64,000 nt of DNA, taken from positions 3,361 to 67,360 of the forward strand of contig CAYLQY010000015.1 of NCBI GenBank assembly GCA_964386325.1. Reading direction: 5' to 3'. Position numbers and translations under genes: made by a program. The stretch comes from an uncultured Erysipelotrichaceae bacterium. GTDB taxonomy: Bacteria > Bacillota_I > Bacilli_A > Erysipelotrichales > Erysipelotrichaceae. The notes below the pieces were generated by a model. It was not told where the DNA came from. It saw only the letters and a list, made by a program, of their open reading frames with translations, and did not search any database. How positions within the stretch are numbered: position 1 is the stretch's first letter; every line of letters starts with the position of its first letter. This document shows positions 10,287-51,664 of the stretch, piece by piece.

Positions 10287-10655
10287 CTACAATACTTCCG
10301 GTGCTAGAGACACAATTTTCATATAGTCTCTTTCACGAAGTTCTCTAGCCACAGGACCGAAAATACGAGTTCCTTTTGGCGTTTTATCATCTTTAATGAT
10401 AACTGCTGCATTATCATCAAATTTAATGTATGAACCATTTTCACGGCGAACGCCATAAACTGTTCTTACGATTACAGCTTTGACAACTTCACCTTTCTTC
10501 ACTGTTCCACCTGGAGCAGCTGCTTTTACCGCACAAACAACGACATCGCCAATGTTTGCACTCTTACGAACGCTTCCGCCTAAGCAACGGATAACTAATA
10601 ATTCTTTAGCACCGGTGTTATCAGCGACGTTTAATCTGCTTTCATTTTGAATCAT
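10287..10655 (-). CDS. rplN: 50S ribosomal protein L14
   Basis: 122 aa, starts [18 protein letters not shown]. Confidence 0.95.
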
Positions 10656-10676
10656 CTTTCATCTTCCTCCTTGTGC

Positions 10677-10937
10677 TTAAAGAATTACAGCTTTTTCAAC
10701 GATTTTAATAAGACGGAAGTGTTTATCAGCTGAAAGTGGACGAGTCTCCATGATTTCAACGATATCACCTGTTTTTGCCTCATTATTTTCATCGTGAGCT
10801 TTGAATTTCTTAGAATACTTAACGCGTTTAGAATAAAGGTCATGACTTTTATTTGTAGAAACTTCAACAGTAATTGTCTTGTTCATTTTGTCCGATACTA
10901 CTTTACCGCGTAATACTTTACGTTTAGATCTTTCCAT
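10677..10937 (-). CDS. rpsQ: 30S ribosomal protein S17
   Basis: 86 aa, S17 OB-fold sequence. Operon position matches. Confidence 0.95.
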
Positions 10938-17097: not shown

Positions 17098-17128
17098 ATA
17101 GAAAAGCAGTGATTCGTCACTACTTTTC
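17098..17128 (-). terminator. Intrinsic terminator of the giant surface protein gene (overlaps its stop codon)
   Basis: Minus strand reads AAAAGUAGUGA-CGAA-UCACUGCUUUU, 11 bp with one G-U pair, followed by U-rich sequence. Confidence 0.6.
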
Positions 17129-23100: not shown

Positions 23101-23845
23101 GTTTTGCTATAGCCAAATCCATTTGTGGAAGTATCATCTCTTCTATCGCTTGATAAAGAGTACTAGTATAATCTATGTTTGCCAATAATTTAGAATCAAC
23201 ATTAAGTGTATTGTATTTACCTTCCACTACAGGAATACTACTAAAACGCATACCTATCGGTACGTTAATTGTAAGCATTTTATTTTCACTCAAAGTATCT
23301 GGAAACTCTACTTTTACTTTAACTTCAACCGCTGGTGATGTTGCTAATGTAGCTGCTGTTAATCCAGTAGTTGAGTTATACCCAATAACCTCAATCGTTA
23401 CGTTTCCCGTGGATAATAAATCAGGCGCAACTGTATCTTCTAAATTTTCAGGTGTACTTGTCGGTTCTTCTGTCGGCTCTGGTATCGGACTTGGCGTAGT
23501 CGTAATAATACCATCTACCGTTACCGTTTCTTTTTGAACCAATGTTTCTTCATTTTTAATATATACGATTTCAAACTCTATATCACCATTCTCAAAAGTT
23601 TGAACTTTTGCAGACTTTGTTCCATCAGAATCCGTCATAATATTTTCATTTCGATAGTTAATTGCTTGGACATCAATCTCGGTGTTTGGCAAAACAGTAA
23701 GCTCAATATTCGCCGCCTGTTTATCTTCTGAATAGGTTATGTTGGAATTCACTAGGATATCTTGTTCTTGAGCATCGATTGGAAAATCGAAAATTGCTAA
23801 AGTTAAAATGATCGATAATAGAGATTTCAAAAGACGATGAATCAT
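17120..23845 (-). CDS. Giant cell-surface protein (about 2241 aa): signal peptide, many Ig-like/DUF5011-like modules, one SdrD-B/Cna-B-like module, Pro-rich stalk, C-terminal TM anchor
   Basis: Start set at the ATG at 23845 (GGGGTGA RBS; MIHRLLKSLLSIILTLAIF signal). The segment FLDLDANGTFDG...DANGIYEFSDV...GYRFTP resembles an SD-repeat B domain. The C-terminus has NPPTPTPSPSPLP, then WWIIIVVVIAGIVIIMLI-KKDDEK. No LPXTG motif. Confidence 0.8.
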   Translation of the reverse strand: MIHRLLKSLLSIILTLAIFDFPIDAQEQDILVNSNITYSEDKQAANIELTVLPNTEIDVQAINYRNENIMTDSDGTKSAKVQTFENGDIEFEIVYIKNEETLVQKETVTVDGIITTTPSPIPEPTEEPTSTPENLEDTVAPDLLSTGNVTIEVIGYNSTTGLTAATLATSPAVEVKVKVEFPDTLSENKMLTINVPIGMRFSSIPVVEGKYNTLNVDSKLLANIDYTSTLYQAIEEMILPQMDLAIAKQTYGSLVYKFKPDTQSIEVNFKIQGDYTLFYGSTEIVDAIQAKVTAGVDNEIVAGSTYAIKLVEISGYPFGYRVYGGTGTVQAIPSTPTETTYGRTNPYFPVDYANLRSPFKPKDPVVSLYYPEGMIFDAILRNGNLYTGNARIEDVPEEHKVNVYFDGYVTIPDPLSVQYIVPEGMEFKKYSNQYHSYITYDTYDGKQLRSANDPRNNIYSVTIINPDTIANKAVISAGATMKTFDSTITDGNYYAGAFSVSNTSGHPLQNQTVEYVIDPNWQVTQVKVPFDAVGDANINSVSYQTNLHPYWRTYNRQNVNDFPTINYVSTTSKLIRGSTLGLVEGEYIIGLKCNIGTLRQDYGIGLLFSKAGITTYGHLKNGIPKATVTIKMYDENNMTNTLVIATSEILALGSNQQSTVGLASDTSISGSAGVVSNILAGKSYHFETTLAIQEYQYLSTTFMRSPIIYLRVPEGIQINLPSLQLFDESGNEVSWTEHQVKDNSGKTVYVINTQNDFVIGNYFYTNAMIKTLKVDFDFSVLINANANAEINFNQFFYWTGTDQYNSVGGYTGMRQDIYDVNGNGDTKEYLQTLNQGANSNVIYPVTSNNSVLVESFIAVEGMEPNGAYDPSNPNTIAYFTPETKANYSLLLTNNTNEAAEEFVAYFPIPKTGINFGANFQSEAFQWDMKLAQAITSGFETANNFTIEYSVDARDENYATATYTTNVTDLTKVTMVRVTAVKPISSQTTATFNVHLQIDETLQSAQAEGKIGKMNEYNPYYYVKSSTFQGSLKGTPIGTQLVIGEIKGKTFLDLDANGTFDGLDVAMPNQSISLWKYNEASSGYEEVVDASNNQIIIQSDANGIYEFSDVHGVTTGIYAIKFELENGYRFTPSLGGSNENLSQVGYVGSNEGWIKGIDPTIPTSQSLNSGYVKYNINDITLIQPNTSSVKLNKLYSATAQFSYLSMSRLLSKTDAYNWELVNPLDNNYVTLLSSKTNTLNVFGKKITQTPIDIELTIRDIYGDTRTFDPITITVLGNNAPVLELNENEVNVSVGDSLDISAAAMLKPITDDYDTLSYSDVRVTSNLDLNKVGYYKVTYAITDSDGNTTSVDLIVKVHGLPYFVDKNGTPVNLTNLPLRKRSNEEALYFSGLHPVYEKVINETTTNRMESIPLGNVANQGVAIVTGIKDSFNITFKPSEDILKVGVYEISYYLENPYGGVTELKRELRVRGNILVRDGTLDYSSTSAVKNYSSLKEFLDANTIRGFYATVEILGQNNIPEIKDLVPDDITYVGDVPFNEIDFTELPSGQTSNTIVIPCEVTDIQSGYSTKTKAINIFVHVFDNSANAPVITINYPITYRLTTDPILMLDGNTEVVPSGGSDFKASDIYKKIMEYASVEPQVSLDIEKIFIETTDTVIDLSNANAESQVIDALKHRGIIEVTYLAEDVNKNVSREIKMFEVATPIEFVNDEQGQQAFVQVVQLRQVDGGLYNPSAYAKYTESNGDEVIYPVYADEISLDNPDVQYVLFSTPQTYEYLPDSNELRANASVQQTLRVQGIVWISDDGIYDYFVDQKIDLNQVTAGFEYVDNTNNLVDKSLGIIYDYPSSTLEVKDYSIVEIQFTAKDNISGAPDNETTYLKKYNFITKPEINTSAEITVKENETEANMEKLMDISATVTLGDGTSADASYIVDFTDVDPLAGGEAVIRATYTLKSGESRTTEQKVNVIVIPKPSITVDSYTLFVGENLDLIGNSKLQIKTNDGVQANLANAKFIQTIPVDGSVVTERGVYDVTVSYEDTVGNNSTAIFQVRVNELPVIGYTAVEQVGLKTSLANLLQMLDAKVSYVNYAGQRIELDKNDIQVNAMDYNPNREGRYTIEFSYEFVPLNKIITASTVVQVIDQNPPTPTPSPSPLPTVPPNNGIPTPPIIQRPVNGGLGDGSNQNRPIQPTTIPGITEDIIVDGFVVKIYRKQNFPKKVKDENYWWIIIVVVIAGIVIIMLIKKDDEK

Positions 23846-23879
23846 AAACTCACCCCTATCTCTATACATCCATCATAAC

Positions 23880-23916
23880 AAAAATTAGCCAAAAGTGTTT
23901 TTTAACACTCTTGGCT
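23880..23916 (-). terminator. Intrinsic terminator of the HD-GYP gene, 35 nt upstream of the giant adhesin start
   Basis: Minus strand reads AGCCAAGAGUGUU-AAAA-AACACUUUUGGCU followed by AAUUUUUG. Confidence 0.65.
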
Positions 23917-25174
23917 ATATTTCAATGCTTCCATATTTTTCAAGTAATAGTTTATACTCGTTGACAATACTCTGATACGCTTGTATTACTTCTTTACTTG
24001 ATTGAGCAACTTCTTCCATAATCACATCAAAATTTCGGATAACGATATTTACAGTACTCGACAATAATTCCCCATCATTTTTCATTTTTTCTAAGATAGT
24101 TATTGTTTTATTTTTATCAAATGCATCTTTGTAACTTCTTTGTCTAACTAATGCACTTACAATGTCCGCAACTGAACAAATGCATTCCGATAATGTTAAA
24201 TCCGCTAAAGTTAACCCTAATGGATAACCACTTCCATTAATCTTCTCATGATGCCTAGATGCTATTCTAGCAATGTCGTTATTAATAACACCCTCTAGAA
24301 TATCTTGAGTCACAGAAACATGCTTCTTCATAACTTCCATCTCATCATAAGTAAGTTTCCCAGGTTTTTCTAATATTTCCACAGGACAAGCAATTTTCCC
24401 AACATCATGCAAAAGTGCTCCAAAGTATAAATTTGATAATTCTTGTTCATCCAAATCCATTCTTTCACCAATGGAGGTGCTTACATTAACAGTTGTAACT
24501 GTATGCAAAACCATGAACTCACTTCTAAAGTCGATCGTATAAGCAATCACCGATAAATAACTTTCAATTTCATCAAACTCATAACTCAAATCTTCTGTCA
24601 TCTTCTTCATCTTTGGAATATAACCTTGATTTTCAATTTCTTCTAGAATTTCTTTATGATTTGGCATTTCTAAAAACTTATCTACCCAATACGGTGATAA
24701 AAGAGTTCCTCTATTTTCGATAATCCATTCTTCACAAAATTTCGCATTGCTATAATTTGTAATTACATCAATTCTATCCGCTAATCGAATTAACCCTGAG
24801 ACATCATTATCTTCTAAGCCTAATTCTTGATAACGACTATAAGATGCATGATGAAACAAAAGAGGTCTTGCTTTCTCTTTCATCGCAGATAAATTTTTAA
24901 GAAATAGATATCCATAAATTGAATGTTGCCAAACATGATTATTTTCAAACGCCATCATGTCATCAATCTCTTCTGTTTTATATGCACCAATGTCATGTAA
25001 GATTCCTAATAAAGCTAACTCATTTATTTCATCTTTAGTAAAACCACCTACTGCATTTAAAATGGTGTAAATAATGTATCCAACTTTTTCGCCATGATCC
25101 ACTAATCGTGCATCCACTTTATTCAGCGTTCGTCTTAAAATTTCTAAAAATTGTAAACTCGTCATTCGTCTCAT
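23915..25174 (-). CDS. Tandem HD / HD-GYP domain protein (putative cyclic dinucleotide phosphodiesterase)
   Basis: 419 aa from the ATG at 25174 (AAGGGGA RBS). The C-terminal domain has LLHDVGK ... HHEKINGSGYP (canonical HD-GYP). The N-terminal HD domain (ILHDIGAYK ... FHHASY) lacks GYP. No TM or receiver domain. Confidence 0.8.
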   Translation of the reverse strand: MRRMTSLQFLEILRRTLNKVDARLVDHGEKVGYIIYTILNAVGGFTKDEINELALLGILHDIGAYKTEEIDDMMAFENNHVWQHSIYGYLFLKNLSAMKEKARPLLFHHASYSRYQELGLEDNDVSGLIRLADRIDVITNYSNAKFCEEWIIENRGTLLSPYWVDKFLEMPNHKEILEEIENQGYIPKMKKMTEDLSYEFDEIESYLSVIAYTIDFRSEFMVLHTVTTVNVSTSIGERMDLDEQELSNLYFGALLHDVGKIACPVEILEKPGKLTYDEMEVMKKHVSVTQDILEGVINNDIARIASRHHEKINGSGYPLGLTLADLTLSECICSVADIVSALVRQRSYKDAFDKNKTITILEKMKNDGELLSSTVNIVIRNFDVIMEEVAQSSKEVIQAYQSIVNEYKLLLEKYGSIEI

Positions 25175-25242
25175 TTTATTCCCCTTATGCGAATCATTAA
25201 AAATCATTTGGTTTCGGAAATAAACTAGGATTTACTTATTCT

Positions 25243-25306: not shown

Positions 25307-28300
25307 CTATGCTTGTATTTGTTCCTCAACTTCTTCATCTTCAACTTCATGCCATCTTCTACCTAAGTAGAAGCATAGAATATTTCCTAATGCGAATACA
25401 ATCATCAGTACTGTATACTTATCAACCAATTTCATTGGTAAAGTAATATTTTCTGTTAGAAGGAATATAACGATTGAAATTACCGCAACAATCACACCAA
25501 TTACCTTGTATATACGTTTACGTTCAAATTCATCTTTCACTTCTTGATTTTCTTCGTTTTCTTCTTCTTTTTCATGTTTCGCAAATAGAAGAACTATTGT
25601 CAACAACATTCCAATTAAAGACGCTATTAAATTAATTAACGCCCAACTTCTTCCTGCTACTTCTGGAGTTGTTTCATCAGTAATTGTTTCTGGAGTAGCA
25701 GTTGGTTTTGCTGTTGGAGCCACTTCAGGAGTGTTGTCATCTGGAACAACTTCAGGCTGAGGATTTCTTGGATTTGGGTTTGGTACTACTGGAACAAATA
25801 CTTCCGGTGTTGGTTCTGGTGTTGGATCAACAGGTGGAGTTACTGGATTTGGATTCTTCGAATAATATATCTTAATAATCGTTTTGTCATTAACACTATC
25901 ATTCGCTTTTATTGATGGTGATATGCCACTATAACTGAATCCACTAAAAGATTTTTGCGCAATTGAGTTCGCCGTCACTACTAGTGTATCCGGTGCATTA
26001 ATCCATACTGTTTCTATAAAATCTGTTGTAGTCGTCGCCACTGAATTTCCTTCAAGCCAATGTTCTACAGTGTACTTAATTTCTTTTGTTTGTGTATCAT
26101 CTTTTACATAGTTAATTGTAATTACTGTTCCTTCTATTACAACTGTAGGCACTGCATCTAATGACGCTTGATCTACTTTATAACCAGTATATGTTTTCAC
26201 CTTGATTATATTCGGTGTTCCTTCTGTTGCATTTACCCATACTGTTATTGTTTCGCTATCTATATCTTGAACTGTACCATCAATTTTGTGTTCTACTGAG
26301 TAGTGGATGTCTTTTGTTTGTGTATCGTCTTTTACATAAGTTACTTCAATCTCTGTTTTATCAGCTACAACATCTCCTGCAGTAATAGTTTTACCCGCAG
26401 TATCTTTGATTGTATCTAATTTGTAACCTACTGGTGCTTTTGTTGCGATTGAATCTGCTGTTACTTCTAGTTCATCTGCATCATTAATCCACACTGTCTT
26501 ATTTACCACTACTTCTACTGGTAAACCATTTGGAAGTGTATGTTTTACTTTATAACTTACTTCTTTTGTTTGTGTTTCATCTTTTACATAGTTAATCGTG
26601 ATAACTGTTCCTTCTGTTACAACTGTAGGCACTGCATCTAATGATGCTTGATCTACTTTATAACCAGTATATGTTTTCACCTTGATTGAATTTGGTGTTC
26701 CTTGTGTTGCGTTTGTCCATACTGTGATTGTTTCATTGTCTGTGTCTCTTACAATTCCATTAATCTTGTGTTCAACTTTATAATTGATACTCTTTGTTTG
26801 CGTATCATCTTTTACATAAGTTACTTCAATCTCTGTTTTATCAGCTACAACATCTCCTGCAGTAATAGTTTTACCCGCAGTATCTTTGATTGTATCTAAT
26901 TTGTAACCTACTGGTGCTTTTGTTGCGATTGAATCTGCTGTTACTTCTAGTTCATCTGCATCATTAATCCACACTGTCTTATTTACCACTACTTCTACTG
27001 GTAAACCATTTGGAAGTGTATGTTTTACTTTATAACTTACTTCTTTTGTTTGTGTTTCATCTTTTACATAATTGATTGTGATAATTGAATTATTAGATAC
27101 TTTACTTCCAGGAATAATATCATTTCCTGCTCCATCTTTTATCGTTCCAATTTTATATCCTGCATAATTGCCATTAGTTTTAGGTTGTAGTGATTCAGAA
27201 GTTACAACTATTGTTTTATCTGTTTCTCCACGCCAAATCGTTCCTTCTACCTTCTCACTAGTTGTAGTTCCATTGACTATATGATTTACTGTGTACTCAG
27301 TATTATCAATAATACGTGTATAGTACAGTGTCATATAATTATTTTGTGTATCTCCGTTATTCATCTCTGGTTTAGAACTTGGGTGATTCTCTACAAATGT
27401 ATAATTTGTTAAATATGCGTCATTTACATAATCTTTTGCATATAAAATTTCATCTAAATTTGTTGGTATTTCATACTTTGTAGATGGGAATTGCTCTTCG
27501 AATGTTCCATCTGCATTTTCTAGATAATGCTTTGTATAAAATATAAACGGTGGTACATTATACTCTTTATAACCATAATAAGCATTTTGATCTTTATTTA
27601 TATTATTGATTATTAATCTACTACCTATTGGTGTACTATACTCTGCATCATTGACAAGCACATATTTAGTACCGTTCAATTCAAAAGATGATGGTGGATT
27701 TAAAAGATATGTTCCAAAATCTAAAACACTATTACCATCTTTTTCATACATCTCTGTCTTCAATACAACGCGTTTTGAAAAATCAGTCAGTTCCGCTCCT
27801 GATTGTGAAATTAATTTTCCATTAGCATCAACAAGATAATAATTCATTTTAATTGAACCTTTATCTCCTATTGTTAATGCTGCATTGGGAATATCTTTAT
27901 TTTGAGGTGCATTGTTATAATCAATATAGTCTATATCCGCACTCTTATTTGTTTCAACTAGACCCACTGCATCTGAATTACTAACTCGAACATAAATTGT
28001 TAGTTTTTTCTCAGTTTCTGTAATATCTCCTAAACTCCAAGTTACTTCATTCCCTTTAACTTCTGCTGTTCCATGAGTTGCTTCAAAACTTATAGAACTA
28101 CCTGGTTTATTAGCAATCGAAAAGATTTCGTCATTGATTACATCTGTGATAACACCTTGTGTACCTGCAATCTTCATTTCACCAGCCAATGCTTCATAGA
28201 TTGGTTGTAGTTGTGCTAGTTCTTTGATATCTTTCGCATATTGTGAAGCTGGCTCAGAAGCAAGTGGTTGAATATATTTATCAAATGGAATGTATGTTTC

Positions 28301-29473
28301 ATTTCCTGATTCTTTAATTGGATCCAATTGTAATCCTAATGAATAAACTTTAATTCCATCAGCTTTCAATTCATCTGCGTAAGACTTAGCTGTGTCATAA
28401 TTTCCTTTATTAGGAACTCCATCACTTAAGAAAATGATGAATCTTGGTCTACTATTATCAATATTATTGAACATGTTTGTGGCATATCTAAATGCATCTT
28501 CATAATTTGTTGCATTCCCATTTGGTTTTAAATACTTCCAAACTTCTTGTTGATAAAACTCGACAGAGTTGTATCTTTCATTATTTCCAACGATTATCTC
28601 ATCGTTAACGCCTAAGAACTTCTCTTTGCTTTCTGGATATGCACTATCACTAAAAGAAATCATTCCTATTTTATTAGTTGAAGGTTTACCATCAACATCT
28701 TCATATAATTTACTAACAAATGCTTGCACAGATTCTTTAAGAGGCGTCCAACGATCTACTCCGTTAACCATACTTTGCGAATTATCGACAATTAGCAATA
28801 CATCAGATCCGGTAATAACTGGATTCCCTTTTACTGTAAAATCGATTGCTGCATAACCATTTTGTTCATCAACCCAACGCGCTTCCTTGGTCACAAAGAC
28901 AGCTCCTGGCTCGTCATTACTAGTTCTTGTCGCTATTCTAGCTTTAGAAGGTTGTGCTGATGAATTTATAGTTATTTCTGGACGTTCTATACTCGATTGA
29001 TAATCATAATTGTAGTAAACTACATTATTAGTATCTGCAAGTACAAGTATCTCAGCACTAACTGTTGCTAATGTATAGCCATCCATTGCAAGAGCATAAT
29101 TACGTGCATTGATTTCTTGACCAACAATTAAATCTTCTATAATAATTTCTCTATTTACTTGCTCATCATTTTCAATATATGAATGTATTGTTAAAAGAGT
29201 AGTATTAATTTCTTTTACTTCTTCAATTTTTTCTACTTCTGGTACAGTAGGTGTTACTTCTGGTGTTGCGTCAATTACTGGTGTTGTCTCTGGTGTAGCT
29301 GAAGGTAATACAACTTCTTCAGGAAGTTGTGTTTCAGACACTTCATTTTCTTCAGTTTGAACAATCACCGGTTCTGCACTACTATCTATCGCAAATGCAT
29401 TCCAACTCTCTGTTGGAACCATCGCAAAAACTAACGTTAGCACTACAAATAATTTTAGTAGTTTTTTAATCAT
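25307..29473 (-). CDS. vWA-domain cell-surface protein (about 1388 aa) with repeated beta-rich modules, Pro-rich stalk and a three-TM C-terminal anchor
   Basis: Signal peptide, then MIDAS motif LLIVDNSQSM plus FIIFLSDGVPN. Repeats of roughly 80 and 160 aa (YKVKH.../YKVEH...). The PVTPPVDPTPEPTPE stalk is followed by three hydrophobic segments separated by an acidic loop. No LPXTG. Start moved to the second ATG (29473) for RBS spacing. Confidence 0.8.
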   Translation of the reverse strand: MIKKLLKLFVVLTLVFAMVPTESWNAFAIDSSAEPVIVQTEENEVSETQLPEEVVLPSATPETTPVIDATPEVTPTVPEVEKIEEVKEINTTLLTIHSYIENDEQVNREIIIEDLIVGQEINARNYALAMDGYTLATVSAEILVLADTNNVVYYNYDYQSSIERPEITINSSAQPSKARIATRTSNDEPGAVFVTKEARWVDEQNGYAAIDFTVKGNPVITGSDVLLIVDNSQSMVNGVDRWTPLKESVQAFVSKLYEDVDGKPSTNKIGMISFSDSAYPESKEKFLGVNDEIIVGNNERYNSVEFYQQEVWKYLKPNGNATNYEDAFRYATNMFNNIDNSRPRFIIFLSDGVPNKGNYDTAKSYADELKADGIKVYSLGLQLDPIKESGNETYIPFDKYIQPLASEPASQYAKDIKELAQLQPIYEALAGEMKIAGTQGVITDVINDEIFSIANKPGSSISFEATHGTAEVKGNEVTWSLGDITETEKKLTIYVRVSNSDAVGLVETNKSADIDYIDYNNAPQNKDIPNAALTIGDKGSIKMNYYLVDANGKLISQSGAELTDFSKRVVLKTEMYEKDGNSVLDFGTYLLNPPSSFELNGTKYVLVNDAEYSTPIGSRLIINNINKDQNAYYGYKEYNVPPFIFYTKHYLENADGTFEEQFPSTKYEIPTNLDEILYAKDYVNDAYLTNYTFVENHPSSKPEMNNGDTQNNYMTLYYTRIIDNTEYTVNHIVNGTTTSEKVEGTIWRGETDKTIVVTSESLQPKTNGNYAGYKIGTIKDGAGNDIIPGSKVSNNSIITINYVKDETQTKEVSYKVKHTLPNGLPVEVVVNKTVWINDADELEVTADSIATKAPVGYKLDTIKDTAGKTITAGDVVADKTEIEVTYVKDDTQTKSINYKVEHKINGIVRDTDNETITVWTNATQGTPNSIKVKTYTGYKVDQASLDAVPTVVTEGTVITINYVKDETQTKEVSYKVKHTLPNGLPVEVVVNKTVWINDADELEVTADSIATKAPVGYKLDTIKDTAGKTITAGDVVADKTEIEVTYVKDDTQTKDIHYSVEHKIDGTVQDIDSETITVWVNATEGTPNIIKVKTYTGYKVDQASLDAVPTVVIEGTVITINYVKDDTQTKEIKYTVEHWLEGNSVATTTTDFIETVWINAPDTLVVTANSIAQKSFSGFSYSGISPSIKANDSVNDKTIIKIYYSKNPNPVTPPVDPTPEPTPEVFVPVVPNPNPRNPQPEVVPDDNTPEVAPTAKPTATPETITDETTPEVAGRSWALINLIASLIGMLLTIVLLFAKHEKEEENEENQEVKDEFERKRIYKVIGVIVAVISIVIFLLTENITLPMKLVDKYTVLMIVFALGNILCFYLGRRWHEVEDEEVEEQIQA
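26088..27070 (-). repeat. Intragenic tandem repeat, period 480 bp, about 2 copies
   Basis: Positions 26331-26590 are base-for-base identical to 26811-27070. The flanking parts of the unit (26088-26330 vs 26568-26810) are similar but diverged. Confidence 0.9.
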
Positions 29474-29592
29474 ATACATCTCTCCCCATTTTGCCTGTCT
29501 TTATCATAGAATATAGGAGTTATAATGCGGTTATAAATTAAAAAAAGCTATGATTTCACAAAGTTTTTTGTCATCATTAGCCTTTTTTCTTG

Positions 29593-43886: not shown

Positions 43887-44306
43887 CTATTTCGCAGCCT
43901 TTGGCTTTTTCGTACCGTATAATGAACGAGATTGATTACGTCCGTTTACTCCAGCACAGTCCAAAGTTCCGCGGATAATGTGATAACGTACCCCTGGTAA
44001 GTCTTTAATACGACCTCCACGAATCATAACCACACTATGTTCTTGTAAGTTATGTCCAATTCCTGGAATGTAAGCAGTAACTTCCATCCCGTTACTTAAA
44101 CGTACACGGGCATATTTACGAAGAGCTGAGTTAGGTTTTTTAGGAGTCATTGTTCCCACACGAGTACAAACCCCTCTCTTTTGAGGACTAGATAAATCTG
44201 TTGTAGTGCTCTTTAAAGAGTTGTAACCTTTGTTTAAAGCTGGAGATTTAGATTTCCAAACTTTATTTGTACGACCTTTACGTACTAACTGATTAATTGT
44301 TGGCAT
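43887..44306 (-). CDS. rpsL: 30S ribosomal protein S12
   Basis: 139 aa from the ATG at 44306 ([12 protein letters not shown]; AAGGAGAAC RBS). The 24-codon upstream extension in the track is not supported. Confidence 0.95.
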
Positions 44307-44409
44307 TAATAGTTCTCCTTCCGATTTAAGCACACACTTCCAAGCGTGCCATACATTAGCATAAATAATAGTTTCCATGCAGGAAACCTAATAGTCGCTA
44401 AGCCTTATT

Positions 44410-44439
44410 ATTCTAAATCATTTCATGTTGTCTTGTCAA
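44410..44439 (-). promoter_or_regulatory. str operon promoter
   Basis: Minus strand reads TTGACA - 18 nt - TAGAAT. The leader of roughly 95 nt contains a GUUUCC-ugcau-GGAAAC hairpin. Confidence 0.55.
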
Positions 44440-44601: not shown

Positions 44602-44629
44602 AAAAGGGCATTTTAAATGCCCCTTTTTT
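44602..44629 (-). terminator. Terminator after the 1591-aa lipoprotein gene (palindromic, could act in both directions)
   Basis: AAAAGGGCAT-tttaa-ATGCCCCTTTT. Confidence 0.65.
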
Positions 44630-44674: not shown

Positions 44675-47600
44675 TTATTCATCACCTGCAGGTTGTTGGT
44701 CAACAGGTATCGTTTGGTCTGTACTAGGTATTATTCCTTCAACTGAAGGTGTCTCAACACTTTCAGTTATTGGACTTGATTCAATAGAGATTTCTTCCTC
44801 TTTTGATTCATCTATCGGTTCTAAAGATTCTACTACTGGTTCTAGCGCAGTTGCTTGTACTGGCTCATCAGCCACAACTTCAACTTCAACTTCTATTGTT
44901 TTTGTAACACCTCTATGTGTAGCAGATATCGTCACCTTACCTACAGCATTTCCAGTTATTCTTCCTTGACTATCGATACTAACAATCTTTTCATCAGAAG
45001 TAGTCCAAGATACTTCTTTTTCATTTGTAGCCGGTATTTTCAATGATAGATCTTTTGATTCTCCAACCTTTATTGGATCAACATTTTCTAAAACCATTAC
45101 ATCTGGATTTAAAGGAATTTTCACTGATTGCGTTTGCTTAGTTATAGTACCATTGTTAATAATAATTAAATCAACATATAAGATATCAATGTTATCTAAC
45201 CAACCTATTGGTTGGATTGTAGACGGATTTGTCCAAGTTTGCCAAGAAGTTGCTGAAACTTTTGTGCCAATACTTGTAGGTTGCCCATCTAATGCAATGC
45301 CATCAGACATTGGATTTCCTAGACTATCACAAATATATCCACTCCATAATTTATTTTTAATAAGTGGGGTATTATTTCCAGTCATAACTGGAATTCTATT
45401 ACCATCTATTTCGGTATAATACACTAAAATAATATCATTCCCTAAATTTTTTACTGCAGCTGAAATTTTCGCCGCTTCTGAACTTGTTAATAAATCAGTA
45501 TACGCTACTTGAATCGCTTGCGAAGTATCCACATTGTAGTTATCTAAATACACATCATTATTTAATGAAAACTTAACAACGATATTTTCTCCTCTACGAT
45601 ATTCAACCACAAAGTTTGATATTTCAACATCTCCAGGAATTCTTATATATGTAATTTGATCATCTGTTACATAAGCACCACCAACTAAAGACAATCCTAG
45701 ACTTTCATTTGCGTGACTGCTTATTACTTTTACAGCTCCATCATCGTTTCTTATATATCCAACAAGTGAACCTGTTTTAGAATTATCTATACCTATTACA
45801 TTCCCTGTTGCATAACTATTTTCAATTTTACTGACATTAGACATTGTAGTTGTTCCTACTTCACCAACTAAGCCACCTATAGATATTTTCTTTGCAGCAG
45901 CATATTCTGAAAAAGTATTTGTTTTTACATTCCCTGTTGCATAGCTATCCTTTATACCTACACCATAATGTAAAAATCCGACAAGCCCACCTACTTTTCT
46001 TGTTCCTTCAACATTTACATTTGTTGAACAATTTATGATTTTATCGATTGCGCTTGATTCTTGTTCACCTGTATAACCAATGATTCCTCCAACATTATCT
46101 CCTTCAGCACCTTCTGCTAGATAAATTCCAGAGACTGAACTGTTGGCACTTGCATTAATTGAACAACTATCAATCACTCCATACCCTTCACCAACGACGC
46201 CACCTACTTTATAATTACCAGAAATTTGAACATTCCCAATAATATTCACATTTTGTATTTTGCCATTATTTAATCCCGATACAGCGCCTACATTCTCTTT
46301 ACCCATAAGTTCAACATTGTTTATGGTTAAATTTTTAACAATACCTGTTCCACTAATACCACCAAACAACCCTGTTCCGCTTACTGATTCTGCATTAACT
46401 GATTTCAAATTGGAAATCGTCTTTCCATTACCGTCAAAAGTTCCTAAAAATGCTTTATTTGCAGTTTGTCCTATCGGTGTCCAATTATTCTTATTTAGAT
46501 TTATATTGTTTGTCAATACAATCGTCTTTCCTGAAAAACTATTTCCATTATTAACAAGTTGAGAAAGTCCTGCAAGTTCTTCAGCCTTTGCTAACTCAAA
46601 TGTAGTTTGTTCAGTGTTGAACCAACTTGTGTCAACTTTATTACCATCCCATACCGAAGAAGTACGTGGAATATCAACATTAAGTGATTTTTTAATAATT
46701 TCACCATTATAAACAACTATAATATCTACACAAACTTTATGACCTTGCGCAGCATCTAACCATCCTTCACTTACTGTTCCTGTAAGTGGATTTGTTGATG
46801 TAATCCATGTTTTATTATTTAACACTCTTTCACCAATATATGTCAACGGCAATAATGTTCCTGCTTCTAAACGTTTCGTCTCTGTTCCATCATGATAATT
46901 TAAATAGCCATCCCAATATTTGTTTTTAACTAATGGGTTTCCATCTTCTGTTAGTAAAGAAACTGGAACATCATTATCATCTAAATAATAGTAATTTAAA
47001 ACAACATCGTTTCCTAGTTCCCAACTACTTTCCCAAGTAATTCCATTCATCAATAGTTTTGTATATGCAGCAGTTAAAGCAGTATTATCTTTAATACCCC
47101 ATGCATTTCGCATTATAAATCCTTTATCTAAATCAAATTCGACAACGATATTTTCATTTTCTGAATCGAATGCAATTTTCGCATTTGAAATTATCGGTAA
47201 CACATATGGGTTATCCACCAGTGGTAGTTCTTTGTTTGTACCTGCTTTACTGTTTATTGTTGCTCCTGTTGTCACTAAACTATTATTTACAAAACTATCA
47301 ACCTCTTCTTTACTTTCCATATTATCAAGATAAATTGAACTATTTAAGTAATCTGTTGAATCAATTAAATTAACTACCCCTTTGAATTCAAGTTTGTCCA
47401 ACCCACAATCCACTCGAATTAAATTTTGTGATAATCCTGATAACTTAGATTCATCTGTTTGATAGTTTGTAACCGTACTATCTTCAATTGTCATTTTATT
47501 GCCAAATGCTTTTTGATTATCAAATATACCATAAATGTCGTTATTTAAGACAATTGTCGAGAAAGAATTTGCTCCGCCTACCATTTTATTAATTCCTTTT

Positions 47601-49450
47601 AATGTAGATCCTTTAACCAAATAATTTCCATAAGAACCCCAAACATTTAATGCTCCCCAAGCATTGATATTACTATTTAATACAGTAACATTTAATCCTA
47701 GGCTATTATCTTCAGCACGTGGATTATCTCCACCTACATTGATACCATATTGATACCCATATATTTTACTTGAGTTGATTGAAACAGTACCTACGGAATC
47801 TAAGAGTGAAATTCCTCTTGATGATTCATATATAACATCTGTTTCAATATCGGTAATTCTTTTATTTCTTATCTCACTATTATTAAGAAAGATATTACTT
47901 TGTAACTTTTCTGTTTTCGATTTATCTTCAATACCATTATTTGAAATACCTCTAGCATTTGTCAACAATACCGTTGAATTTAGAGTAATATCAAAATCTA
48001 TGTCATATCCTATTGATATCCCTTTAGAGTCTTTACCAATAGCATCAACAGTTAAGTTATTTAATGAGAACTTCGTTTTGTTATCAACTATAAATGCATC
48101 ACCGCTTGTAATTGTTAATTTAGTATTATTACCAAAAATAGCAAGATCTCTACTAATCGTTAACCCTTTATCGAGCGTGATATCTTGTGTAAGATTTATT
48201 GCACTAACACGATTGTCTGCAACAATTGCTACAATATTTTCACTTGTAGCATCAACTGTAATTTTCCCTGTTAATGTTTTTGCTGAAGTCACACTAGCAT
48301 TAAAATCATAAATATTTCCTAAGTCATCTAACCAAAGTACATAACTTCCAGCATAAACATCATCTTTAAGACTGACAACTGGTTTAATTATTTTTTCACC
48401 TTGTTTAATACTTTGAGAGTCTACTGAGTATCCATCCAACACAAAATTAACTGTATAAGTTGGTGTTGGTACTGCAGTTGGTTTTGGTGTTGATGGTGTT
48501 GATGGTGGTACTGGTGTTGGTTCTACTGTTGGCACTGGTGTTGCAGGTGCTTTTGTAGGAACGGCAGTTGGTTTTGGTGCATTTGTCGCAACTGGTGTTG
48601 GCGTCGCAGCAACTATTTCCTTATTTGATTCTTGAATTGGATTTTCATTTACTGTTGTTGTTTCTGCTTTAATATTTCCAGTTACATTATTTGTATCCGT
48701 TGTAATAACATTCGTTAACTTACCTTCTCCAGATACATCTATTTTTGTTTCAGTCGCTAAGTTTTTAACTTCTACGTCCTTCGCTACTGTCATTGTTGTA
48801 TTTTGAGCCGCTGCTTCAACCCTCACGTTTTCTACTGCTGCTTCTAAACTAACTTTACTTTCTGCTTTCAAATTCAAATCTGTTATAGGTGATTGCACAA
48901 GCAAACTAGTAGGAGCATTAACTTCTACTTTAGTCACTTTTGAATTAGGTTGAAGTGCAATGTCTGTTGCCTTAGCATCAGGTTTAACACTTAAATTTGT
49001 AACTTGTCCTGATACCTCTAAGTTCGTTTCTCCACCTAAATCAACAGTTTCAACTTTTGAGTTTTCAGATATTACAATACGAACTGCACTACCTGCTTTC
49101 CCACTTTCCATTGATTTTATATCACTATTATCAATGTGGATTGAGTTTGATCCTCCACCTTCAATAATTAATTTCCCATTTACTTTAACTCCATCTAGAG
49201 TTACATCACCTTCGCCGACACTTTTATCAATGGTCAAGTCACCAGAAAATGTTGTATTTTTAATAACTACATCTGAAACCGTGATTATACCTGAAGCATA
49301 ACTCGATTGATCATATGTCTTGCCCTCATTAAATGTCATTAGTGTGGGTTGTTCAGTTTCTTTCAAAGTATCATCTTTCTTAGGCGAACAGCCCGTAAGG
49401 ATACCCATCGATAAGAACGCACATAATAATGTTATTATTATTTTCTTCAT
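44675..49450 (-). CDS. Giant surface lipoprotein (1591 aa): beta-helix-like region, Pro/Thr linker, two diverged copies of an unknown module, GLUG-repeat region, Big_2 domain, acidic tail
   Basis: Lipobox GILTG-C-SPKK. GLUG-type repeats (VGGVVGE, VGGIIGY, VGGLVGF, IGGLVGE). Big_2-like segment VSWTTSDEKIVSIDSQGRITGNAVGKVTISA. GAGGGAGAG RBS. Confidence 0.85.
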   Translation of the reverse strand: MKKIIITLLCAFLSMGILTGCSPKKDDTLKETEQPTLMTFNEGKTYDQSSYASGIITVSDVVIKNTTFSGDLTIDKSVGEGDVTLDGVKVNGKLIIEGGGSNSIHIDNSDIKSMESGKAGSAVRIVISENSKVETVDLGGETNLEVSGQVTNLSVKPDAKATDIALQPNSKVTKVEVNAPTSLLVQSPITDLNLKAESKVSLEAAVENVRVEAAAQNTTMTVAKDVEVKNLATETKIDVSGEGKLTNVITTDTNNVTGNIKAETTTVNENPIQESNKEIVAATPTPVATNAPKPTAVPTKAPATPVPTVEPTPVPPSTPSTPKPTAVPTPTYTVNFVLDGYSVDSQSIKQGEKIIKPVVSLKDDVYAGSYVLWLDDLGNIYDFNASVTSAKTLTGKITVDATSENIVAIVADNRVSAINLTQDITLDKGLTISRDLAIFGNNTKLTITSGDAFIVDNKTKFSLNNLTVDAIGKDSKGISIGYDIDFDITLNSTVLLTNARGISNNGIEDKSKTEKLQSNIFLNNSEIRNKRITDIETDVIYESSRGISLLDSVGTVSINSSKIYGYQYGINVGGDNPRAEDNSLGLNVTVLNSNINAWGALNVWGSYGNYLVKGSTLKGINKMVGGANSFSTIVLNNDIYGIFDNQKAFGNKMTIEDSTVTNYQTDESKLSGLSQNLIRVDCGLDKLEFKGVVNLIDSTDYLNSSIYLDNMESKEEVDSFVNNSLVTTGATINSKAGTNKELPLVDNPYVLPIISNAKIAFDSENENIVVEFDLDKGFIMRNAWGIKDNTALTAAYTKLLMNGITWESSWELGNDVVLNYYYLDDNDVPVSLLTEDGNPLVKNKYWDGYLNYHDGTETKRLEAGTLLPLTYIGERVLNNKTWITSTNPLTGTVSEGWLDAAQGHKVCVDIIVVYNGEIIKKSLNVDIPRTSSVWDGNKVDTSWFNTEQTTFELAKAEELAGLSQLVNNGNSFSGKTIVLTNNINLNKNNWTPIGQTANKAFLGTFDGNGKTISNLKSVNAESVSGTGLFGGISGTGIVKNLTINNVELMGKENVGAVSGLNNGKIQNVNIIGNVQISGNYKVGGVVGEGYGVIDSCSINASANSSVSGIYLAEGAEGDNVGGIIGYTGEQESSAIDKIINCSTNVNVEGTRKVGGLVGFLHYGVGIKDSYATGNVKTNTFSEYAAAKKISIGGLVGEVGTTTMSNVSKIENSYATGNVIGIDNSKTGSLVGYIRNDDGAVKVISSHANESLGLSLVGGAYVTDDQITYIRIPGDVEISNFVVEYRRGENIVVKFSLNNDVYLDNYNVDTSQAIQVAYTDLLTSSEAAKISAAVKNLGNDIILVYYTEIDGNRIPVMTGNNTPLIKNKLWSGYICDSLGNPMSDGIALDGQPTSIGTKVSATSWQTWTNPSTIQPIGWLDNIDILYVDLIIINNGTITKQTQSVKIPLNPDVMVLENVDPIKVGESKDLSLKIPATNEKEVSWTTSDEKIVSIDSQGRITGNAVGKVTISATHRGVTKTIEVEVEVVADEPVQATALEPVVESLEPIDESKEEEISIESSPITESVETPSVEGIIPSTDQTIPVDQQPAGDE

Positions 49451-49470
49451 ATACTCTCCCTCATAGAATT

Positions 49471-49496
49471 AAAAAATACGAGACCTTATAGCCCCG
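49471..49496 (-). terminator. Terminator-like hairpin in the leader of the 1591-aa lipoprotein gene (candidate riboswitch expression platform)
   Basis: Minus strand reads CGGGGC-UAUAAG-GUCUCG (6 bp, 2 of them G-U) followed by UAUUUUUU. Ends about 20 nt before the RBS. Confidence 0.4.
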
Positions 49497-49514
49497 CACA
49501 CTTTAAAATACAAA

Positions 49515-49593
49515 GTTTTACTGCAACTGGCTACCATGTTAAAGGCCCTTTAGTTTTGTGTCACCATCTTTCGATGATTTTACCTATTCATAT
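49515..49593 (-). promoter_or_regulatory. Candidate divergent GEMM-I (c-di-GMP-I) riboswitch aptamer
   Basis: Minus strand GGUAAAAUCAUCGAAAGAUGGUGACACAAAAC aligns without gaps to the Vc2 core GGCAAACCAUUCGAAAGAGUGGGACGCAAAGC. Both have a GAAA-capped helix flanked by GGYAAA and GACRCAAA. The downstream AGCCAGUUGC resembles the conserved 3' strand. Confidence 0.45.
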
Positions 49594-49599
49594 AAATAC

Positions 49600-49629
49600 A
49601 TAATACCACTTATTTTAATATTTTGTATA
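49600..49629 (-). promoter_or_regulatory. Promoter of the riboswitch-like leader
   Basis: Minus strand reads TATACA - 18 nt - (TGg)TATTAT, an extended -10. Confidence 0.4.
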
Positions 49630-49634
49630 AATAA

Positions 49635-49661
49635 ACAAAAAAATGGTATAAAAATACCATT
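49635..49661 (-). terminator. Intrinsic terminator after feoB
   Basis: Minus strand reads AAUGGUAU-UUUU-AUACCAUU followed by U7. Confidence 0.75.
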
Positions 49662-49663
49662 TC

Positions 49664-51664
49664 TTAGAAAAGTAAATTTGCAATTTGATACACAATAAAT
49701 GCCACAATATAGGCTACACCCGTTTGAAAGAGAACACTTTTGAGTGTAAATAACCAGCTCTTGCTTTCGCTTTTGATTGTCGCAACAGCTGCCATACAAG
49801 GACTATATAATAAGGTAAATGTCATAAATGCTAAGGCACTTGCATGTGTAAACACTTGTGAAAGAATCAAATCTAATTGCGCTGATGTTGCTACATTATA
49901 CACAACAGCCATACTAGAAACAACACTTTCCTTTGCAATGAAGCCACTCATTAAAGAAATAACAGATTGCCAATTACCAAATCCCAATGGTGCAAATATC
50001 CATGCAATCGTTTGCCCAACTTTACCTAATATACTCAATTCTGGATTATCTACCATTTGTAATGAGAAACTAAAACTTGTTAAAAACCAAAGAAGCACAG
50101 TCATTGAGAAAATAATTGTCCCTGCTTTAATTAAGAAGCCTTTCGCTTTCTCCCACATATGCATCATTGTATTTTTGAAAGATGGGAAACGATAAGGCGG
50201 AAGTTCTAAAATAAATGTTGAACTATCTCCTTTGAAAATCGTTTTTCTTAAAAGCAATCCACATATAATCGCAACAACAATCCCTAACACGTACATTCCA
50301 AAGATTGCTATGTTGGCATTATTTGGAAAGAACACGCCTGCAAATAATGCATAAATTGGTAATCTAGCACCACATGACATAAATGGTGTCAATAACATGG
50401 TCATCTTACGATCTTTTTCGTTTTCTAACACACGGGTCGCCATAACCGCTGGAACTGTACAACCAAATCCCATTAACATTGGAATAAACGCTTTTCCATT
50501 TAAACCAATTTTTCTTAACATTCTATCCATCAAGAAGGCAGCACGTGACATGTATCCACTATCTTCAAGAATCGAAAGAAATAAAAACAACAACATGATT
50601 TGTGGCATAAATGATAAGACACTACCAACACCGCCAATTACTGTTTCGACAAGATTAATTGACCAGCCACTTGCACCCAATCCAAGTAGTGACGTTGATA
50701 ACCAAACACTGAAAGTTTCAATACCCAGTTCTACAAACCCTTGAAGCGTTGAACCTAATCCTCCAAATGTGATTGTAAATATCGCAAACAAAATTACAAA
50801 GAACATTGGTATTCCTAAATATTTATGGGTTAATAAACTATCAATTCGATCCGAAGCTGATTTCATTTCAGATACACACGGTTTACATAAACTCATTGAA
50901 ACAATGCGTTCTATTTCAGCATACCGCGTATCTGCGACAGCCATATCAATATCTCTTTGATTTTTAATTACACAGAAGTCTTTTTGAATATCTTCCAGCG
51001 CTTTGTATTGCTCTGGTGTAAAATCAAATTCTTTTTTTATCAACTCATCGTTTTCTAATAATTTAAAGGCATAGAATTTTTCATGCGTTCCATCATGTTT
51101 TTTTTCTTGAATAATTGAGATAATTCGTTTTAATACTTCTTCCGTTTGTACATCATATGTAAATGTCGAAGAATTGGTATTATGAATTAGACTATGGATT
51201 AGTTCATCCATTCCTTGGCCATTCCTTGCACTAATGGGTACTACTGGTGTATTAAGTTCACGTGATAATTGTTCAATATTTAATTCAATATCTTTTTGAA
51301 TTAATTCATCCATCATGTTTACTGCAATAACCATTGGAAGCCCTAATTCTTTAAGTTGCATACTTAAATATAAGTTTCTTTCAAGATTAGTTCCATCAAC
51401 AATGTTAATAATTAAATCTGGATGTTCGTCCATAATATAGTCACGTGATACAACTTCTTCCATACTATAGGGTGACATGCTGTATATCCCCGGTAAATCT
51501 ACCAATGTGATTTCATGTTCCTCAAAGGTAAATACACCCACTTTTTTTTCAATCGTTACACCTGGCCAATTTCCAACATGTTGTTTTGACCCAGTTAGCT
51601 GATTAAATAAGGTCGTTTTTCCACTGTTTGGGTTTCCTACCAATGCTACTGTTTGTTTCATCAT
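49664..51664 (-). CDS. feoB: Ferrous iron transporter FeoB
   Basis: 666 aa. N-terminal G domain (GNPNSGKTT, DLPG, NMMD) and a polytopic permease domain. Confidence 0.95.
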   Translation of the reverse strand: MMKQTVALVGNPNSGKTTLFNQLTGSKQHVGNWPGVTIEKKVGVFTFEEHEITLVDLPGIYSMSPYSMEEVVSRDYIMDEHPDLIINIVDGTNLERNLYLSMQLKELGLPMVIAVNMMDELIQKDIELNIEQLSRELNTPVVPISARNGQGMDELIHSLIHNTNSSTFTYDVQTEEVLKRIISIIQEKKHDGTHEKFYAFKLLENDELIKKEFDFTPEQYKALEDIQKDFCVIKNQRDIDMAVADTRYAEIERIVSMSLCKPCVSEMKSASDRIDSLLTHKYLGIPMFFVILFAIFTITFGGLGSTLQGFVELGIETFSVWLSTSLLGLGASGWSINLVETVIGGVGSVLSFMPQIMLLFLFLSILEDSGYMSRAAFLMDRMLRKIGLNGKAFIPMLMGFGCTVPAVMATRVLENEKDRKMTMLLTPFMSCGARLPIYALFAGVFFPNNANIAIFGMYVLGIVVAIICGLLLRKTIFKGDSSTFILELPPYRFPSFKNTMMHMWEKAKGFLIKAGTIIFSMTVLLWFLTSFSFSLQMVDNPELSILGKVGQTIAWIFAPLGFGNWQSVISLMSGFIAKESVVSSMAVVYNVATSAQLDLILSQVFTHASALAFMTFTLLYSPCMAAVATIKSESKSWLFTLKSVLFQTGVAYIVAFIVYQIANLLF

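Follow-up and report, generated by a model that had tools for sequence, protein, structure and literature searches.

In the 64-kb stretch of DNA analysed here, which we call the window, the gene for a 1591-aa surface lipoprotein is transcribed with a leader of about 143 nt. A preliminary description had likened this leader to the GEMM-I (c-di-GMP-I) riboswitch and had suggested a divergent member, possibly a variant class or one with an altered ligand, in front of an adhesin-like gene. The locus thus raises the question of which class of element the leader contains, which ligand it would recognize, and whether that ligand would turn the gene on or off. We consider it probable that the leader carries a canonical class I riboswitch acting as an OFF switch of the single lipoprotein gene; both ligand binding and the direction of regulation are what we infer here.

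Layout of the locus and family of the aptamer

Pfam identified the feoB and feoA ORFs, and the terminator of this operon, whose hairpin-bearing segment folds at -16.3 kcal/mol (RNAfold), stands between feoB and the riboswitch promoter. Because the lipoprotein gene has a terminator of its own in addition, and rpsL a separate promoter, the riboswitch controls a single gene. The features of the locus are as follows.

49638..49665, minus strand: intrinsic terminator of the feoAB operon, AAGAAAUGGUAU-UUUU-AUACCAUUUUUU (RNAfold hairpin)
49600..49629, minus strand: promoter of the lipoprotein gene (promoter scan, 9/12 matches with TG)
49629..49624, minus strand: weak -35 element, TATACA
49608-07 and 49605..49600, minus strand: extended -10 element, TG and TATTAT
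49519..49594, minus strand: c-di-GMP-I (GEMM-I) aptamer (RF01051 match)
49583:49558 and 49582:49559, minus strand: P1a pairs (RF01051 alignment)
49578-49573 / 49568-49563, minus strand: P1b (RF01051 alignment)
49555-49552 and 49548-49544 / 49535-49533 and 49530-49525, minus strand: P2 (RF01051 alignment)
49462..49456, minus strand: RBS, GAGGGAG (sequence reading)
49450..49448, minus strand: ATG of the lipoprotein gene (sequence reading and ORF list)
44675..49450, minus strand: surface lipoprotein gene, 1591 aa (translation, Pfam)
44602..44626, minus strand: terminator 3' of the lipoprotein gene (promoter/terminator scan)
44439..44410: rpsL promoter, next after the lipoprotein gene (promoter/terminator scan)

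Promoter, aptamer, terminator, RBS and ATG follow one another in this order in the leader of the lipoprotein gene, as had been proposed, and the extended -10 promoter is indeed found as TG plus TATTAT at 49608-49600. The TAT of the -10 element is unchanged across the aligned orthologous leaders, two of which (L007 and L008_b) carry TGnTATAAT. From this promoter, transcription would start near 49593. The spacing between the U-run and the RBS had been put at about 20 nt and is in fact about 8 nt.

A search of the whole window with all 4227 Rfam family models, each at its gathering threshold, gave a single match. This was RF01051, with 58.6 bits (gathering score, 35), coverage of model positions 1-87 of 87 and an E-value of 6.8e-9 (64-kb window, both strands), which bears out the GEMM-I identity over the full length of the model. 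A covariance model built from the orthologous leaders found a single copy in the window with filters off. The c-di-GMP-II family (RF01786), for which the preliminary description had also proposed a search, gave no match in the whole window at gathering thresholds and none up to an E-value of 10 within 49400-49700.

The 32-mer core quoted earlier, GGUAAAAUCAUCGAAAGAUGGUGACACAAAAC, is present at 49584..49553 on the minus strand. Its GAAA tetraloop (49572..49569) caps the 6-bp helix AUCAUC/GAUGGU (P1b), in which four Watson-Crick pairs adjoin the loop, exactly as stated for the CAUC/GAUG helix, followed by one U-G wobble and an A-U pair at the base. The second hairpin, AACU-AAA-GG-GCC-UUUAACAU-GGU-AG-CC-AGUU, occupies 49555..49525, is followed by GC, and was drawn in the preliminary description identically to the RF01051 alignment. 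All 17 model pairs are standard in the window (17/17, RF01051 alignment). The P2 hairpin is short, and its loop has 8 nt. Of the type 1 features, the GNRA tetraloop on P1b is present as GAAA; where a tetraloop receptor would lie in P2, the bulges AAA and AG and the loop CC-UUUAACAU-GG bear only a partial likeness to the receptor CCUAAG/UAUGG.

P1, which is not part of the RF01051 model, comprises at most 3 bp from the deduced start (UAU 49592-49590 with GUA 49521-49519); the RF03167 alignment marks 2 of its 3 P1 pairs as non-canonical, and inspection of five orthologous leaders revealed no conserved P1 helix. The unconstrained fold of the 160-nt leader was not significant by itself (z -1.34), and plain MFE folding would not have revealed the aptamer; every annotation pipeline built on Rfam would label it. 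Of the features of RF01051 membership that can be tested in silico, the element shows the full-length model match, the two covarying hairpins, the ligand-contacting triad (described below) and the 5' leader position with an expression platform, and we conclude that it is almost certainly a canonical c-di-GMP-I riboswitch.

Ligand site and conservation in Anaerorhabdus

In the published numbering, Bc1 G11/A38/C81 are equated with Vc2 G20/A47/C92 (PMC11218506), and RF01051 model positions 11 and 38 correspond to Bc1 G11 and A38. The model alignment gives 49584 for G20, an unpaired G at RF01051 model position 11, 49557 for A47 and 49523 for C92. G20 reads the Hoogsteen edge of one ligand guanine and C92 is the Watson-Crick partner of the other (PMC5888326, PMC6140456), while cGAMP-sensing GEMM-Ib RNAs have an A at position 20 (PMC6140456). 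The G/A/C triad of the window thus predicts a binding site of the standard c-di-GMP type.

The deviations that had suggested an unusual element lie in paired columns, and the pairs are kept, so that the earlier proposal of compensatory changes holds. C22-G45 of the reference is replaced by U-A at 49582:49559; since U49582 pairs with A49559, the GGU and ACA that stand in place of GGC and ACG reflect a single swapped pair, seen on each of its strands. G50 of the reference corresponds to A49554, which pairs with U49526 in P2 (AAAAC for AAAGC). Each of these U-A and A-U variants recurs in 7 of 70 distinct related aptamers (described below), and the element exceeds the threshold of the standard model by 23 bits; the term "divergent" is not warranted.

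A variant class with an altered ligand, such as cGAMP or another dinucleotide, would find some encouragement in the clan competition, where RF03167 (c-di-GMP-I-GGC) had the best E-value when thresholds were permissive. Its score of 52.7 bits is nevertheless under its own gathering score of 59, whereas RF01051 is well above its threshold, and the window has the standard A (49557) in the column where the RF03167 consensus has G; the c-di-GMP-I-GGC class was rejected on both counts. Position 20 does vary among relatives: the triad reads G/A/C in 55 of the 70 distinct sequences, A/A/C in 13, U/A/C in 1 and C/A/C in 1, and the neighbouring-species leader L008_b has a U. In the window, however, 49584 is G and not the A of cGAMP riboswitches (PMC6140456), which led us to reject GEMM-Ib as well, and all the listed deviations are compensated pairs shared by other standard members. 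We give almost no credence to a variant class with an altered ligand. The element represents no new class, new ligand or new mechanism.

To compare leaders, we fetched contigs encoding eight homologues of the lipoprotein. With Rfam, the RF01051 element was recovered at 54-61 bits from the homologous leaders at L004, L007 (A. furcosa) and L008/L009, and L008/L009 is syntenic, in the order feoA-feoB, riboswitch, surface protein, rpsL; an Rfam scan found no riboswitch at the paralogues located elsewhere (L003, L005, L010). Covariation in related leaders, which the preliminary description had proposed to examine, supports the helices: in the five-leader alignment all 85 pair cells were standard (85/85) and five pairs had changed on both sides, while controls in which the partner was slid by 1-3 columns were 19-49% paired. 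When metagenomes were scanned for the P2 3' strand, numerous GEMM-I aptamers of gut and environmental origin were retrieved; 79 of them, 70 distinct, were aligned with the five-leader model. Among these 70, 98% of the cells were paired and nine pairs had changed on both sides (slid controls, 15-41%). Since the search pattern dictated the P2 3' strand and the sequences were aligned by fitting them to the model, it is in P1a and P1b that covariation is informative.

The surroundings of the element have diverged to different degrees. The rpsL-fusA DNA of the window is 91-92% identical to that of A. furcosa and of an Anaerorhabdus MAG, feoAB shows about 77% DNA identity among Anaerorhabdus species, and the coding sequences downstream of the riboswitch differ between species. 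In L008, which has two riboswitch units, a search of the intervening DNA yielded no convincing ORF. A regulatory cassette is thus conserved at a locus whose coding cargo varies between species, which is mildly unexpected.

Expression platform and direction of regulation

The expression platform of about 70 nt contains one terminator, in line with the terminator-type platform described earlier. Its features are the following.

49500..49516, minus strand: linker hairpin, ACUUUG-UAUUU-UAAAGU (RNAfold)
49471..49499, minus strand: intrinsic terminator of the expression platform (terminator scan)
49481..49548, minus strand: predicted antiterminator, an interrupted duplex of 18 bp (constrained RNAfold)

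The terminator hairpin (49499..49476, -14.6 kcal/mol) has a 10-bp stem, GUGCGGGGCU / GGUCUCGUAU, with the loop AUAA, and is followed by UUUUUU to 49471. It begins 23 nt 3' of the aptamer, with no overlap between the two. All five orthologous leaders (5/5) have a terminator at the same place, with differing 3' strands. Both alternative folds contain the linker hairpin, but it lacks conservation among the aligned orthologues. A match to L20_leader (17.6 vs 58.7 bits) was discarded as due to chance, the sequence concerned being the terminator.

In the predicted antiterminator, 49548-49542, 49534-49529 and 49526-49522 of the P2 region pair with 49498-49481 of the terminator hairpin, a fold that excludes both P2 and the terminator. 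We folded the transcript from the deduced start (~49593) to the U-run with ViennaRNA. The fold containing aptamer and terminator has an energy of -25.8 kcal/mol, essentially the MFE, and the antiterminator fold one of -25.6 kcal/mol (constrained RNAfold). Enforcing the aptamer helices raised the mean terminator pair probability from 0.42 in the free ensemble to 0.97, and the same direction was seen in L004 (0.46 to 0.82) and L008_b (0.06 to 0.94). In L007 and L008_a the equilibrium probability of the terminator was at least 0.94 with or without the aptamer, so any switching there must be kinetic.

Nascent transcripts agree with an early antiterminator. In window transcripts of 103-118 nt the antiterminator is the MFE structure, as it is in nascent transcripts of each of the five leaders, and in transcripts ending before the terminator 3' strand the CCAGUU of the P2 3' side is paired downstream in all five leaders (p 0.5-0.99, 5/5), its partner being the emerging terminator 5' strand. 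In the orthologues this 5' strand, GUGUGCUGG, is conserved and complementary to GCCAGUUGCAC of the aptamer, while the loops differ. The window counterpart reads GUGUGCGGGGCU, with GCGGGG in place of the conserved GCUGG; its antiterminator is shifted and takes in more of P2, and the complementarity is weaker than in the orthologues. By RNAduplex, the complementarity in the window had a z-score of -1.68, with 6.5% of shuffles as good, and the range over window and orthologues was a modest -1.1 to -2.2. Because this is only modestly better than shuffled sequences, the OFF assignment is not based on complementarity alone.

We applied the same folding test to two validated switches from the supplement of PMC9262584, so that the ON/OFF criterion is calibrated on one example per type. 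For Cd1, a validated OFF switch, the terminator probability went from 0.96 in the free ensemble to 0.93 on enforcing the aptamer; for pilM, a validated ON switch, it fell from 0.96 to 0.00. Aptamer and terminator coexist in Cd1 and compete with an antiterminator, whereas in pilM they are mutually exclusive (PMC9262584). Most of 67 related metagenomic leaders were Cd1-like and a few were pilM-like, with a terminator overlapping the aptamer, such as L044 and L125, in which enforcing the aptamer lowered the terminator probability from 0.95 to 0.33 and from 0.99 to 0.33, respectively. In this test the window groups with the Cd1-like OFF layout, and the folding models suggest that the element is probably a Cd1-type transcriptional OFF switch, acting by termination.

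In the mechanism that we propose, the nascent aptamer (49594..49519) would bind c-di-GMP via G(49584), A(49557) and C(49523), and the P2 hairpin would be kept closed. The hairpin 49499..49476 with its U-run could then form, and RNA polymerase would stop about 20 nt before the start codon. When c-di-GMP is lacking, the emerging 5' strand of the terminator would invade the weak P2 hairpin, the duplex of 49548-49522 with 49498-49481 would form, and the lipoprotein gene would be transcribed. The predicted net effect of c-di-GMP is premature termination and hence repression of the lipoprotein.

The opposite sign, a canonical aptamer that works as an ON switch by relieving termination or opening the RBS and so induces the surface protein, would fit the usual link of high c-di-GMP with adhesion. 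It also has a class I precedent in Bc2, the ON switch upstream of the collagen adhesin gene cap (PMC11218506). The C. difficile surface adhesins CD2831 and CD3246 are likewise c-di-GMP-induced, via class II switches (PMC6366702), the class that the clostridial precedent invoked earlier concerns. One fold of the full leader, in which CUUUGUA pairs with UAUGAGG, covers part of the RBS and may affect translation. The platform itself argues for OFF architecture and against the induction implied in the preliminary description: its terminator lies well beyond the aptamer, enforcing the aptamer strengthens that terminator, while pilM, L044 and L125 lose theirs (0.00, 0.33 and 0.33), and the folds of the window revealed no ligand-stabilised competitor of the terminator. 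We therefore regard an ON switch as unlikely. A real aptamer might also serve no working switch in vivo, the leader being a constitutive attenuator, locked in one state or dependent on an extra factor. Bc1 of B. thuringiensis, which appeared locked OFF at any c-di-GMP level (PMC11218506), illustrates such a case, and the weak P1 of the window aptamer, an antiterminator lacking the conserved GCUGG match and the dominance of the terminator at equilibrium in both states of L007 and L008_a would all be compatible with it. Yet every aptamer pair is maintained, and aptamer, promoter and terminator have been kept across Anaerorhabdus despite the divergence of feoAB and of the downstream coding sequences, which argues for selection on a working sensor and makes a non-functional switch very unlikely.

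The regulated lipoprotein and comparison with known systems

The predicted target has the lipobox LTGC with Cys21, and a lipobox is present in all homologues checked. Pfam detected a Big_2 domain at 1460-1522 (4e-9) and a GLUG match of 17.9 bits, below the cut-off of 20.5 but above it in homologues; the protein further contains a Pro/Thr-rich linker, GLUG-like repeats and an acidic tail, and its 1591 residues include no LPXTG motif. Homologues were found only in Anaerorhabdus (Erysipelotrichales), at 44-79% identity. Exact-sequence look-ups returned no record of the lipoprotein or of its homologue P0007, and neither a PDB sequence search nor NCBIfam was informative about its function. Scanning a genome collection with the lipoprotein yielded one relevant locus (L001), on a contig that ends before the leader; a weak match (L002) was unrelated.

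The same window encodes, at 25207..23915, a protein with HD and GYP motifs, which are typical of c-di-GMP phosphodiesterases. Together with the riboswitch, this protein indicates that this Anaerorhabdus genome uses c-di-GMP signalling, with a giant, lineage-restricted surface lipoprotein as a predicted direct output. That c-di-GMP should repress an adhesin-like surface protein is contrary to the common pattern. If the OFF logic is true, the element would be a further Bacillota class I switch that represses a surface-related function, after Cd1 of C. difficile, and an adhesin-like gene behind a c-di-GMP riboswitch would not necessarily be induced. Tentatively, and with rather less confidence than in the OFF assignment itself, we envisage that promoter, GEMM-I aptamer and terminator form a conserved cassette at a fixed chromosomal position between feoAB and rpsL in Anaerorhabdus, which drives species-specific giant surface lipoproteins that are repressed by c-di-GMP. 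High c-di-GMP would then be a signal to shed or swap the surface coat, contrary to the usual rule by which c-di-GMP turns adhesins on. Outside annotation, the significance of the element is small.

Several known RNAs resemble the element. GEMM-Ib, RF03167 and c-di-GMP-I-UAU share its fold and its Rfam clan (CL00126), and at gathering thresholds RF01051 was out-competed by none of the other clan members. In structure, the nearest reference is Vc2 of V. cholerae, to which the window core aligns without gaps; the two have in common the GAAA tetraloop helix, the GGYAAA and GACRCAAA junction strands and the G/A/C triad. Compared with Vc2, the window swaps two junction-proximal pairs compensatorily (C-G to U-A, and a G-pair to A-U), its P2 is shorter and its P1 very short, and its platform is a Gram-positive terminator. 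Bc1 and Bc2 of B. thuringiensis are, like the window element, Bacillota class I aptamers with a GAAA tetraloop and terminators (PMC11218506). Bc2/cap is the closest class I switch on an adhesin, but Bc2 is ON, whereas the window has OFF-type architecture; Bc1, upstream of mcpE, has a 220-nt platform with two terminators, in contrast to about 70 nt and one terminator in the window.

The closest functional analogue is Cd1, a member of the same Rfam family and a validated transcriptional OFF switch upstream of the C. difficile flgB operon (PMC9262584). The cores are very similar, AAAUAGGCAAA...GACGCAAAGCUAUAGGG...AGCCAGUUGC in Cd1 and GAAUAGGUAAA...GACACAAAACUAAAGGG...AGCCAGUUGC in the window, and G11 of the Cd1 transcript has its counterpart in the G20 equivalent of the window, likewise the 11th nucleotide of the RF01051 match. 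Cd1 has an extended distal helix, whereas P2 of the window lacks one and closes with its 8-nt loop, and the linker to the terminator is 23 nt in the window and about 40 nt in Cd1. Cd1 regulates flagellar genes and the window element a surface lipoprotein. Both nevertheless have a separate downstream terminator that is compatible with the aptamer, and an antiterminator, predicted in the case of the window, that uses the aptamer 3' strand.

A probable variable surface-protein site behind a conserved riboswitch leader

Comparison of window positions 44675..49629 with the corresponding loci in L006/L007 (L007 being that of A. furcosa) and in the related Anaerorhabdus locus L008 revealed that the riboswitch leader is kept upstream of rpsL-rpsG-fusA wherever the locus is comparable, while the cargo behind it varies by species. 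A single protein lies immediately 3' of feoAB in the window (1591 aa) and in L008 (1002 aa); A. furcosa carries two, of 1367 and 1368 aa, and there the upstream neighbour is a 1208-aa gene, not feoB. The flanking rpsL-fusA DNA is 91-92% identical, and that of the surface proteins is 64-69% identical or unalignable. The locus looks like a variable surface-protein site beneath a fixed regulator.

At the rpsL side of this site, one gene start is in doubt:

43887..44378 (-), rpsL, mechanical ORF call, 163 aa

The rpsL product called in related genomes is shorter (139 aa) and, since the mechanical ORF begins 5' of the hairpin predicted in the rpsL leader, the true start probably lies farther downstream.

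An HD-GYP protein between giant surface proteins

Three further genes of the window lie side by side:

17120..23869 (-), giant surface protein, 2249 aa, bacterial surface Ig-like domain
23915..25207 (-), HD-GYP-type domain protein, 430 aa (Pfam HD_5, 5.6e-27)
25307..29479 (-), giant surface protein, 1390 aa, VWA

The central protein, flanked on both sides by giant surface-protein genes, has its HD motif at residue 267 and GYP at residue 327, and matched an NCBIfam c-di-GMP phosphodiesterase family only partially. Its sequence makes a c-di-GMP phosphodiesterase likely. No riboswitch was found at either flanking gene.

Tandem units and variation at position 20

In L008, from a related Anaerorhabdus MAG, the spacer between feoB and the surface-protein gene contains two complete units, each comprising a promoter-like sequence, a GEMM-I aptamer and a terminator. 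They are spaced ~380 nt, and the stretch separating them has no convincing ORF. L009 shows the same arrangement:

L008 2389-2464, GEMM-I aptamer
L008 2843-2918, GEMM-I aptamer

In the aptamer nearer the gene, the G20 position is occupied by U, a substitution that could alter ligand affinity or specificity. In alignment A3, 70 distinct GEMM-I aptamers of gut or environmental origin have the same P2 3' strand as the window element, and 13 of these carry A at position 20, including those at metagenomic loci L020, L027, L052, L058, L071, L073, L080, L084, L093, L099 and L107. At L084, two aptamers lie in tandem, one with A20 (10617-10692) and one with G20 (10786-10861). A at this position is characteristic of GEMM-Ib riboswitches that sense cGAMP or are bispecific.
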